25,124 nucleotides of DNA from a virus (lineage: Duplodnaviria; Heunggongvirae; Uroviricota; Caudoviricetes). The notes under the pieces are model-generated. The model worked only from the letters and a program-made list of their open reading frames with translations, was not told where the DNA came from and searched no databases. How positions within the stretch are numbered: the stretch's first letter is position 1; each line of letters begins with the position of its first letter. The position numbers and the translations under genes were made by a program. Positions 12,266 through 14,057 of the stretch are shown one piece after another. The stretch lies in IMG/VR virus record IMGVR_UViG_2703718836_000005, positions 1 to 25,124 of that record, one strand, 5' to 3'.

Positions 12266-12978
12266 TAGGGAACGAGGAGGCATAACAGGCAAGGGCGCTG
12301 GTTTGATTAACCAGATGAACGAGAAGGGGCCATCTTCTGGTCAGCGTCCTTACCTGTTACGTCCTTTTTCATTCAGCGTAACAGCCGGTTCTTAACAGCC
12401 TTTGGGTAGAGTTCCTCGTATTTACGGGTATATTCCGTCATGCTGAAGGCGCTAATCACGCTGGAAGCTAGGGGGGATCCCCTGTTACCGAATTGCAGCC
12501 AGGGCGCGGGTGTAGTGGTTTATTGATTGTTACGGCGCATTCTGGGCTGTACTAAATTTCTGCGCCTAATACTACTACACTTGCCGTTTACTGATGTGTG
12601 GTATGTTGCATATGGGCAACACACTCAAGCCTGATGCAGCACGGTCAGGTAGGGGACGCCGACCTAATGTCTCGCCCTGCAAGGGCGGACGAAAGTAGAT
12701 CACTATTCCGCGCAGCTATTTAGAAAGAACAGGTATTGAATTACCTGGAGAACAACTTACTTACGTTTCCGCCACACCTTCGCTAGTTACTTTATGATGA
12801 ATGATGGTAATATTCTGGTATTGTAACGAGTGCTCAGATATACTTACATCTAAATAACAATGATATATGTTCAATTTAACCTTGAATATTTTGTAATGTT
12901 ACACGACTTTAAAATTTAGAAGAAGAGGATTCGGTTGAATCCGATATTAAATCTGAGACAGGAATATAAGGTTACACG

Positions 12979-13293
12979 ATGAAGCTTAAAAAACTACAAT
13001 CTCTTGATTTTGTGAATGATTTTATGAGTCACCTAGAAACTGATTTTGAAAAAGAATTATTCACAGCTTGTTTGCGAAATTATGCATCACATGGCAACCT
13101 ATTACGTTTTCATAACTTTGCATTTTCAATTCGCGAGCTAATAAAGCATATTGTCGAGAAAAAATCTCCGAATGATAAATTATTACAAGCATCGTGGTAT
13201 AAGAGAGAACATGAACATTACGAAATATCTAGAAGACAGCGTTTAAAATACTGTTCTCAAGCTAAAATTTCAGATGCGTACTTGGGGGAATAG
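12979..13293 (+). CDS. hypothetical protein in low-GC islet (upstream part of an amber-interrupted frame)
   Basis: 104-aa ORF in a stretch whose GC content (roughly one third, estimated by eye) is well below the flanking roughly 50 percent; ends at TAG 13291-13293; contains an R-x4-H pattern (RNYASH). Confidence 0.45.
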   Translation: MKLKKLQSLDFVNDFMSHLETDFEKELFTACLRNYASHGNLLRFHNFAFSIRELIKHIVEKKSPNDKLLQASWYKREHEHYEISRRQRLKYCSQAKISDAYLGE

Positions 13294-13326
13294 TTCCTGG
13301 AGGAGTCGAATGAAAGAATAGATGAG

Positions 13327-13914
13327 ATGCTTAAGCTTTATTTCTTCTTAAATAAATATACGCATATAACAGAGAAATATATGCATCCATCACCTCAAGA
13401 GTTCTTCCTGAAGGCCAAACAAATACTGCAGATCGCTACAGAAATACTAAATGGTATACATATTTGTAGAGATGAATTAATTCGTACTCTCGAAGATAAA
13501 ATTAGAAATGCAGTTATTGACACGGCGGTAAGCTCTATGCCTGAAAACCTAGTGACTATCGCGAATCATGCGTATGTAGATTACACTGAAGTCGAAGAAT
13601 TTGGAATCACGTCGATTGATGATGAGTACATCAATATATATGCTTCCGGTACTGTCTATGTTACTCAAGAATATGGTTCTAGGAATGATGGGGTTAGCCT
13701 AGAAGAAAGTTATCCGTTCACGTTGCACATGGCTTCTCACTTAGACTCTCCTGAAACATTTGAAGTCATATCTGAAGCTTTAGAGGTAGACACTTCATCG
13801 TGGTACGATGATGGGGAGCAGGAGGATCAAATGATGGATATGGAAAGAAATGAAATTCATCGAATATCTGTTGCACCCCCAGACTTTGAGATGGATGACA
13901 ATGTACCATTCTAA
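13327..13914 (+). CDS. hypothetical acidic protein in low-GC islet (downstream part of the same frame)
   Basis: 195-aa ORF in the same frame as 12979-13293, separated from it by one TAG and 11 sense codons; acidic C-terminal tail; poor SD at its own ATG. Confidence 0.45.
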   Translation: MLKLYFFLNKYTHITEKYMHPSPQEFFLKAKQILQIATEILNGIHICRDELIRTLEDKIRNAVIDTAVSSMPENLVTIANHAYVDYTEVEEFGITSIDDEYINIYASGTVYVTQEYGSRNDGVSLEESYPFTLHMASHLDSPETFEVISEALEVDTSSWYDDGEQEDQMMDMERNEIHRISVAPPDFEMDDNVPF

Positions 13915-14057
13915 CATAAAGAAACATAGGCTAGTAGCGATGAAGTGCGGTAAAAATGGCTAAAACTAGATAAGTAATGGCAATCTGTGCCAATGAGTAA
14001 ATAACACAACCTATTAGATCTGCATTTATTTTTCAAAGGGATCATAATCGCACAGCC

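Follow-up and report, generated by a model that had tools for sequence, protein, structure and literature searches.

Two adjacent open reading frames (ORFs) in a viral DNA of 25,124 nucleotides (IMG/VR record IMGVR_UViG_2703718836_000005, positions 1 to 25,124; this whole stretch is called the window below) raise the question of whether they represent one gene or two. ORF 12979-13293 (104 amino acids, aa) and ORF 13327-13914 (195 aa) share a reading frame, and a first-pass annotation had offered three accounts of them: a newly inactivated single gene, a read-through or reinitiation arrangement, or a two-protein module. The explanation that we favour, with a probability of about 0.8, is that the window carries an accessory gene of a P1-like (IncY) phage-plasmid, that this gene belongs to the PF18165 plus PF18166 family and travels as a lone cargo, and that it was recently broken by an amber mutation. 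The finding is, in these terms, ordinary pseudogenisation of a gene from a catalogued family.

A recent amber mutation interrupts a single gene

The sequence, the ORF list and the translation agreed on the architecture that the first-pass annotation had described. The combined frame 12979-13914 comprises 312 codons with both stops counted, and the two ORFs are separated by TAG (13291-13293) followed by 11 sense codons (TTC CTG GAG GAG TCG AAT GAA AGA ATA GAT GAG), after which comes the ATG at 13327. The stretch was found by megablast in 24 PLSDB plasmids at 98-99.9% identity, and was also present in 18 complete E. coli genomes. A comparison with related P1-like genomes had been proposed as a check, and four relatives (NZ_CP017632, NZ_AP024520, NZ_CP057257 and CP057803; loci L001-L004) were compared with the window base by base. 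GAG (Glu105) replaced TAG in all four, and each annotates one coding sequence of 936 nucleotides (nt) encoding 311 aa. Because the relatives read have GAG and one intact gene, this comparison identifies the TAG as a recent nonsense mutation, a single G to T change at 13291 that turned Glu105 to amber. The sharing of a frame by both ORFs is likewise not a matter of chance, since the relatives encode an uninterrupted 311-aa protein over the same coordinates. Of the three accounts, inactivation of a single gene is thus the one that held, and translation of the window copy should stop after residue 104, inside the first domain.

The window and CP057803.1 showed 5 mismatches over 20,285 bases (99.975% identity), the G/T difference at 13291 among them. 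A second mismatch (13016, Asn13/Ser13) also lies inside the gene, and both in-gene mismatches alter the protein. Two of the five differences therefore fall within 936 of the 20,285 bases, where 0.23 would be expected, the numbers being small. Relative to the other plasmids, the window and CP057803.1 have Pro41Leu and Ile59Val in common; Pro41 is invariant in a 31-sequence clade of close homologues and is found in 71 of 144 representatives of the wider family. The change at this clade-invariant residue, together with the two in-gene changes, hints at relaxed selection or selection for loss.

The broken allele was not confined to the window. Both exact fragment products are present in NCBI (WP_064768161.1, 104 aa, and WP_064768162.1, 195 aa), and gene calls on 12 contigs, which come from several independent samples, include the 104-aa product; among the samples and assemblies are SRR3407249, GCA_030346215.1, SRR8502556 and ERR15372762. 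TAG was present in all four amber-allele loci that were read (L050-L053, from four independent samples). As judged from these sequences, the amber allele is a real, circulating knock-out, and neither a recoding device nor an error.

Homologues elsewhere pointed the same way. A search at E<=1e-3 returned 231 homologues, and among the 120 listed the lengths were 270-316 aa except in five short entries (173-212 aa). The first-pass annotation had allowed that the homologues might always occur as two separate genes, which would speak against a single gene; an intact single ORF was found in 27 of the 29 species-representative loci, and the other two, from Marinobacter and Halioglobus, are independently broken or truncated. 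The homologue of Marinobacter sp. C2H3 (L040, 10001-10835) is split into parts of 139 and 103 aa, and that of a Halioglobus metagenome-assembled genome (L041, 10001-10354) is truncated after 117 aa. There was no stop at codon 105 in 31 aligned homologues, and residue 105 is variable in the family (E in 43/144, then T, I, N and K).

The intact gene belongs to a catalogued two-domain family

Domain searches were run on the repaired 311-aa protein, in which Glu105 was restored. Pfam PF18165 (pP_pnuc_1) matched residues 17-152 (1.5e-34; 118.9 bits against a gathering cut-off of 26.3) and was followed by PF18166 (pP_pnuc_2) at residues 163-276 (2.1e-33; 115.5 bits against a cut-off of 25). The PADLOC model Aga_Nuclease (PDLC02413) aligned over profile positions 5-267 of 267 (1.2e-62), and PHROG 29508, a group of unknown function, matched at 2.1e-92; no NCBIfam model matched the repaired protein. 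The first-pass annotation had recognised neither ORF product, and it was the profile search of the repaired frame that placed them in a catalogued family. Where neighbouring contigs annotate the split ORFs, the 104-aa part carries PF18165 and the 177/195-aa part carries PF18166, and some RefSeq/UniRef records name intact copies 'pPIWI-associating nuclease domain-containing protein'. These matches identify the intact gene as a 311-aa member of the PF18165 plus PF18166 family, catalogued in Pfam and PADLOC. An uninterrupted frame of about 275-315 codons would be expected of a member, and the window copy departs from this by its TAG at codon 105.

An exhaustive profile search (E<=1e-3) gathered 754 clusters at 50% identity, and nearly all of the best 150 representatives of these clusters were 270-290 aa long. 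Over 144 representatives, R52 and H129 were invariant (144/144 each), W73 and G233 were each found in 142, and R85, T128, E53 and D237 were nearly invariant; the window frame encodes all of R52, W73, H129, G233 and D237. The strict invariance of R52 and H129 argues for catalysis. The first-pass annotation had also pointed to the string RNYASH as a possible sign of a HEPN-type fold, a motif that did not hold up in the family-wide alignment. RNYASH is conserved in the close clade only, its R33 and H38 occurring in 23/144 and 11/144 representatives family-wide, and the invariant pair R52 and H129 lies 77 residues apart and not within one motif. The canonical HEPN Rx4-6H motif was rejected on these grounds.

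AlphaFold2, supplied with the 31-sequence alignment, gave a confident model (mean pLDDT 87, pTM 0.76). Residues 1-185 form a helical domain that includes a helix at 104-126, residues 197-263 form three long antiparallel strands and one short strand followed by a helix, and residues 294-311 form a disordered tail with pLDDT below 50. Block means of pLDDT over residues 271-311 were 75, 60, 47, 38 and 36. The fold had no match among solved structures, phmmer and profile hmmsearch against PDB sequences found no match, and a nuclease fold was not recognisable. The 'nuclease' activity of the family therefore stays a prediction. Text searches of the literature for the identifiers used by Pfam, PADLOC, PHROG and RefSeq gave no relevant result, and the restriction endonuclease (REase) partner of pPIWI-RE described by Burroughs et al. 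(2013; PMC3702460) is different from the PF18165/PF18166 protein.

The gene is a lone cargo of low GC content

The database name implies partnership with an Argonaute, and this was not borne out in any neighbourhood that we examined. None of the ORFs in the window is as large as an Argonaute or has a PIWI domain: those of at least 400 aa are parA, the methyltransferase, the tail genes on the P1 gene 7 side and a 420-aa ORF without a Pfam match, and the immediate neighbours of the gene are tnpB and dbn/gene 5. Gene calls or a neighbour scan covered 38 neighbourhoods and revealed no Argonaute gene, nor was there a sign of one in 19 further viral loci. PIWI was absent from the Pfam-annotated neighbours of 9 distinct homologues and from the results listed for 72 large neighbours, and neighbour clustering across the 29 species-representative loci gave no conserved neighbour or partner gene.

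Homologues at 44-70% identity lay in a prophage moron region of Pseudomonas fragi, in defence islands of Shewanella, where the gene adjoins SMODS/SLATT, Schlafen, KAP NTPase, AAA_15/21 and SieB, and in P2/186-like prophages of Enterobacter, Yersinia and Pantoea, where it stands directly after cI-int in the same orientation. The large neighbours in the 29 loci were integrases, type I restriction-modification, BREX, PD-Lambda-2/-4, MADS, Dpd-type helicases and transposases, and CRISPR type I genes were also among the defence genes beside homologues. Five distant members, from Thiorhodovibrio, Burkholderia, an acidobacteriotal genome (Acidobacteriota), Microbulbifer and a metagenome contig, were just as solitary; when four of them were run against the PADLOC Aga_Nuclease model, three scored 336-345 bits and the fourth 290. 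In Microbulbifer spongiae the family member is preceded, at a distance of 211 bp and in the same orientation, by a gene for a 401-aa reverse transcriptase (RVT_1; L048, 4584-5789); this single occurrence may be a defence-associated pairing with a reverse transcriptase.

Relatives were found on 23 viral contigs in IMG/VR, often by an integrase or portal gene or near a contig end. In 50,697 sequenced phage genomes, neither the islet that contains the gene nor the protein had a match by megablast or tblastn; P1, P7 and SJ46 were included in this set, and the flanks do match them. Among PLSDB plasmids, the P1-type baseplate segment was present in 486 and the gene in 24 (about 5%). The GC content was 0.362 for the gene, 0.373 for the novel islet at 12510-14041 and 0.483 for the remaining window. 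The contrast noticed in the first-pass annotation thus stood at 36-37% against 48%, its figure of one third for the islet being slightly low. The gene was below its flanks in GC in 9 of the 10 hosts checked, which, with the absence of this DNA from P1, supports the foreign acquisition that had been proposed. The gene is accordingly a lone cargo of low GC that occurs at the ends of prophages, within defence islands and, in about 5% of P1-like plasmids, at the ban locus. This genomic context supports the earlier suggestion of accessory, defence-type cargo.

An acidic tail resembles the end of SSB

In the alignment, an enterobacterial clade of 305-316 aa carries a 34-aa acidic extension that a 277-aa clade is without. 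The linker of this tail is variable, and the tip, D-[DE]-[DNS]-x-P-F at the very C-terminus, is conserved. The window frame ends in ...VAPPDFEMDDNVPF (...DFEMDDNVPF*), with the tip PPDFEMDDNVPF. E. coli SSB ends in ...NEPPMDFDDDIPF (PPMDFDDDIPF), and its last six residues dock more than 14 replication and repair proteins (PMC5872125). When the pattern [DE][DE][DENS]xPF-end was searched among 1,316 ORFs (80 aa or longer, from 734 kb of DNA), all 8 matches belonged to the PF18165/PF18166 family. Besides the window (13810-13911), tails were located at L012-L014, L057-L060 and L067-L075. Unrelated extensions occur in other clusters of the family; these too are acidic, frequently with Phe or Tyr as the last residue. 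Among them, ...NNFDDDVPF and ...LDNDIPF come closest to SSB, and ...ESPF, ...YEEEF, ...TETEF and ...IRSDF are less close. The acidic, aromatic-ended tail looks like a recurrent feature that was acquired independently.

Possible function of the intact protein

A defence or exclusion role for the intact protein is possible, though we would put it at somewhat under even odds. The protein could then be an effector of exclusion or defence that needs no partner and is expressed from the lysogen or plasmid. A phosphodiesterase site of His/Arg type, probably independent of metal, would lie in its helical N-domain (R52/E53, W73, R85, T128/H129), and the NTF2/cystatin-like C-domain might mediate assembly or the sensing of a ligand or partner. 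The acidic tail with the tip PPDFEMDDNVPF would anchor the protein to partner proteins of SSB where these work on intermediates of replication or recombination; alternatively, it could serve as a nucleic-acid-mimicking autoinhibitor.

A wider proposal, which we regard as unlikely, is that PF18165/PF18166 proteins are not accessories of Argonautes but independent, mostly single-gene effectors of mobile elements with an unseen fold, whose phage-borne members plug their tails into the SSB hub. Such a tail might aim the nuclease at the replication or recombination intermediates of competitors, or act as a decoy. If this were true, the amber allele of the window would be a natural knock-out of such an effector system.

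The intact gene might instead encode a counter-defence or hijacking factor of the phage, with the SSB-like tail as a decoy for the SSB-Ct pockets of ExoI, RecQ or defences that monitor SSB, and the 'nuclease' body may then be catalytically irrelevant. The tailed forms do occur on temperate phages and phage-plasmids, the tail closely mimics the tip of the host SSB, and the lack of a recognisable nuclease fold would also suit such a factor. However, tail-less 277-aa members reside in chromosomal defence islands beside known defence genes, and none of the sequenced phage genomes searched has a homologue. In the P2/186-like prophages, moreover, the co-oriented gene follows cI-int, a position that we take to be a lysogenic operon, typical of exclusion genes and not of early anti-defence genes. 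Since the strict invariance of R52 and H129 also suggests catalysis, a role in counter-defence appears doubtful, and an exclusion or defence effector is the function that we prefer for the intact protein.

Other accounts of the split frame

A two-protein module would consist of the 104-aa N-terminal fragment and the 195-aa C-terminal fragment (from ATG 13327), made by termination and reinitiation and cooperating as subunits. The Shine-Dalgarno-like GGAGGAG on which the first-pass annotation had remarked is indeed present upstream of a mini-ORF, ATG AAA GAA TAG, although at 13299-13305 and not at 13298-13304, an error of one base. The mini-ORF (13310-13321) is in another frame, its stop lies 5 nt ahead of ATG 13327, and both elements are correctly positioned for coupling. 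The maintenance of the allele in 12 contigs from several samples and the second split homologue in Marinobacter could be read in the same way. Yet each of the four relatives compared at the base level has GAG within one ORF, and homologues are single genes. GGAGGAG is ordinary coding sequence for Leu-Glu-Glu that is also present in the intact L001 and L004 (L002 and L003 have GGAGGAT), and it therefore did not evolve for reinitiation. The break falls within the PF18165 domain, just before the helix at 104-126, and leaves the invariant R52 and H129 on separate fragments. The Marinobacter gene is split elsewhere, as independent decay predicts. A two-protein module, and with it reinitiation, is thus very improbable.

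We consider it no more credible that the gene is a conditional one, in which the amber codon is read through naturally or by a suppressor tRNA of the host to give a low, regulated level of full-length protein. Residue 105 is not conserved family-wide, and the protein would probably accept Gln, Tyr or a different residue at this position. But the stop is conserved in no homologue, the relatives having GAG at this position, the window encodes no tRNA and the tRNA genes of P1 are deleted from it, and the base after the stop is T, which favours efficient termination in E. coli. An error of sequencing or assembly, with the gene intact in the real plasmid, might be suspected from a one-base difference to a plasmid 99.975% identical, but is effectively refuted by the exact 104-aa product on 12 contigs from different runs and assemblies and by TAG in 4/4 loci read.

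Several points weigh against the explanation of the locus as a recently broken, lone effector gene. No published experiment on any PF18165/PF18166 member was found in the literature. The Pfam and PADLOC summaries of neighbours list the 25 commonest families, and a rare PIWI neighbour could escape them. A promoter scan upstream of the gene gave no convincing site, the one weak site overlapping the start codon and the number of sites being fewer than expected by chance, and expression in the lysogen is deduced solely from the prophage arrangement. The persistence of the amber allele in several isolates is compatible with neutrality, and also with some residual use. Finally, because position 105 is variable in the family, the gene would probably function again in a host that suppresses amber codons.

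The nonsense mutation alone matters little. It shows that the gene is dispensable for a circulating lineage of P1-like plasmids, and it makes available a natural null allele for which nearly identical intact counterparts exist (5 differences in 20 kb). The family, with its 754 clusters, is more important than the mutation: its name implies a partner Argonaute that was missing from every neighbourhood examined, its fold is not recognisable, the literature search found no experiment on it, and its phage-borne members repeatedly carry an acidic, aromatic-ended tail, which in Enterobacteriaceae copies the docking tip of SSB. Should the tail be functional, it would exemplify the use of the SSB interaction hub by a protein of a mobile element.

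The ban locus in a P1-type backbone

The window has a P1-type backbone with parB, parA, repA, rdgC, dmt, tnpB, the gene, a dbn remnant and the tail/baseplate genes 5, 6 and 24 (Table 1). The islet replaces P1 trnA-trnT-plp-upl-tciABC and the 5' part of trnI, and P1 ban and most of dbn are deleted. The first-pass annotation had placed the gene between an insertion sequence (IS) and relic sequences, and both flanks could be identified: the former encodes an IS200/IS605-type TnpB, and the latter are remnants of the P1 ban operon, namely trnI and, from 14124, dbn. Compared with P1, the region 10595-14690 has lost the content of the C1-controlled ban operon and has the IS with tnpB and the 1.5-kb islet instead, with the Oban counterpart kept upstream.

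Table 1. Coordinates of the gene, its parts and the flanking features in the window
Feature	Coordinates	Strand	Evidence
Counterpart of P1 C1 operator Oban/Pban; upstream of the gene, co-oriented	10584..10615	.	Palindromic match to P1 locus 1583-1614
IS200/IS605-type insertion with tnpB (10959-12134), in P1 dicF-like/pre-trnA spacer, upstream of the islet	10846..12174	+	P1 comparison
Low-GC islet, 1.53 kb, without counterpart in phage P1	12510..14041	+	blastn against P1 NC_005856 region, P1 annotation, GC
Single 311-codon gene of the PF18165 + PF18166 family; pseudogene here	12979..13914	+	Single 936-nt CDS in four relatives; Pfam, PADLOC, PHROG
N-terminal fragment ORF, 104 aa; has R52, E53, W73, R85; lacks H129	12979..13293	+	Exact product WP_064768161.1
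RNYASH (R33-H38), clade-specific Rx4H string	13075..13092	+	Alignment
Leu41 codon (T at 13100)	13099..13101	+	Pro invariant in 31-sequence clade; change common to CP057803.1
R52-E53	13132..13137	+	R52 invariant, 144/144 family representatives
Amber TAG, from GAG (Glu105) via G to T at 13291	13291..13293	+	GAG in L001-L004; TAG in L050-L053
C-terminal fragment ORF, 195 aa, from Met117; has T128-H129, beta domain and tail; lacks R52	13327..13914	+	Exact product WP_064768162.1
T128-H129	13360..13365	+	H129 invariant, 144/144 family representatives
Acidic C-terminal extension, residues 278-311, absent from 277-aa clade	13810..13911	+	Alignment; pLDDT
SSB-Ct-like tip PPDFEMDDNVPF, extreme C-terminus	13876..13911	+	Likeness to E. 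coli SSB end; motif regex
Relic of P1 trnI 3' end and downstream spacer	14042..14121	+	P1 comparison; ARAGORN: no intact tRNA
3' remnant of P1 dbn; glycosyltransferase fragment ORF 14211-14642	14124..14642	+	P1 comparison

ARAGORN found no tRNA in the window, the tRNA-like strings being remnants of P1 trnI. Rfam gave a single sub-threshold match, to tmRNA_permuted at 12125-12228 (32 bits against a gathering threshold of 47), a label that is probably spurious. The match spans the 3' end of tnpB and the IS end at 12174 and runs into P1-homologous DNA, which is the expected place for the guide (omega/re) RNA of TnpB. The dmt homologue (8576-10594) encodes a protein of 672 aa in which a C5-cytosine methylase domain is fused to a Dam-type N6-adenine methylase domain, and is much longer (>1,090 aa) as annotated in NZ_AP024520 and NZ_CP057257. 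ORFs 23438-24700 (420 aa) and 6146-6991 (281 aa) had no Pfam match at E<=1e-3.

Comparison with known systems

The system closest in name is prokaryotic Argonaute (pAgo) defence. The protein of the window matches both Pfam domains and the PADLOC Aga_Nuclease model over its full length, differing from the catalogued family in being amber-broken. The associated-protein model of a pAgo system is thus matched, and the adjacent PIWI/MID Argonaute gene is absent in the window; a pAgo defence system was rejected because this defining gene was not found at the locus.

Two nucleases that are encoded with Argonautes were also compared. bAgaN of BPAN (long-B pAgo-associated nuclease, E. coli) shares with our protein the label of an Argonaute-associated nuclease and a layout of two domains, in which a regulatory or helical part at the N-terminus is followed by a C-terminal part. 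It is, however, a 390-aa PD-(D/E)XK protein (PMC13535254, PMC10620215), and identity with bAgaN (EcbAgaN) was rejected; the PD-(D/E)XK C-terminal domain with its D-EVK motif was not found here. Agap-HEPN of AmAgo, a nuclease encoded together with an Argonaute, has a helical His/Arg active site, a second domain described as 'unidentified' and a part that folds poorly; its catalytic R262/H267 lie in a C-terminal HEPN domain, and its authors report no BLAST homologues beyond a six-member pAgo group (PMC11162769). The RNxxxH string of our close clade is reminiscent of it. Here, in contrast, the invariant residues are the widely spaced R52 and H129, and RNYASH is not family-wide; by the published description of Agap, with which the comparison was made in place of its sequence, the active-site arrangement differs, and identity with Agap-HEPN was rejected as well.

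In its genetic setting the gene resembles the exclusion genes of P2-like lysogenic conversion (old, tin, fun/Z) and the cargo of prophage defence hotspots: all are single, sporadic, low-GC genes at prophage ends or variable loci, co-oriented with cI-int. They differ in that no sequence relation to old, tin or fun/Z was found and PADLOC gave Aga_Nuclease only. The end of the protein, finally, resembles SSB. As it has no OB-fold ssDNA-binding domain, the PF18165/PF18166 protein is not an SSB. What it has in common with SSB-Ct (DDDIPF) is a disordered acidic linker followed, at the extreme C-terminus, by the order acidic-acidic-x-hydrophobic-Pro-Phe, and in SSB as in this clade the tip is kept while the linker varies.

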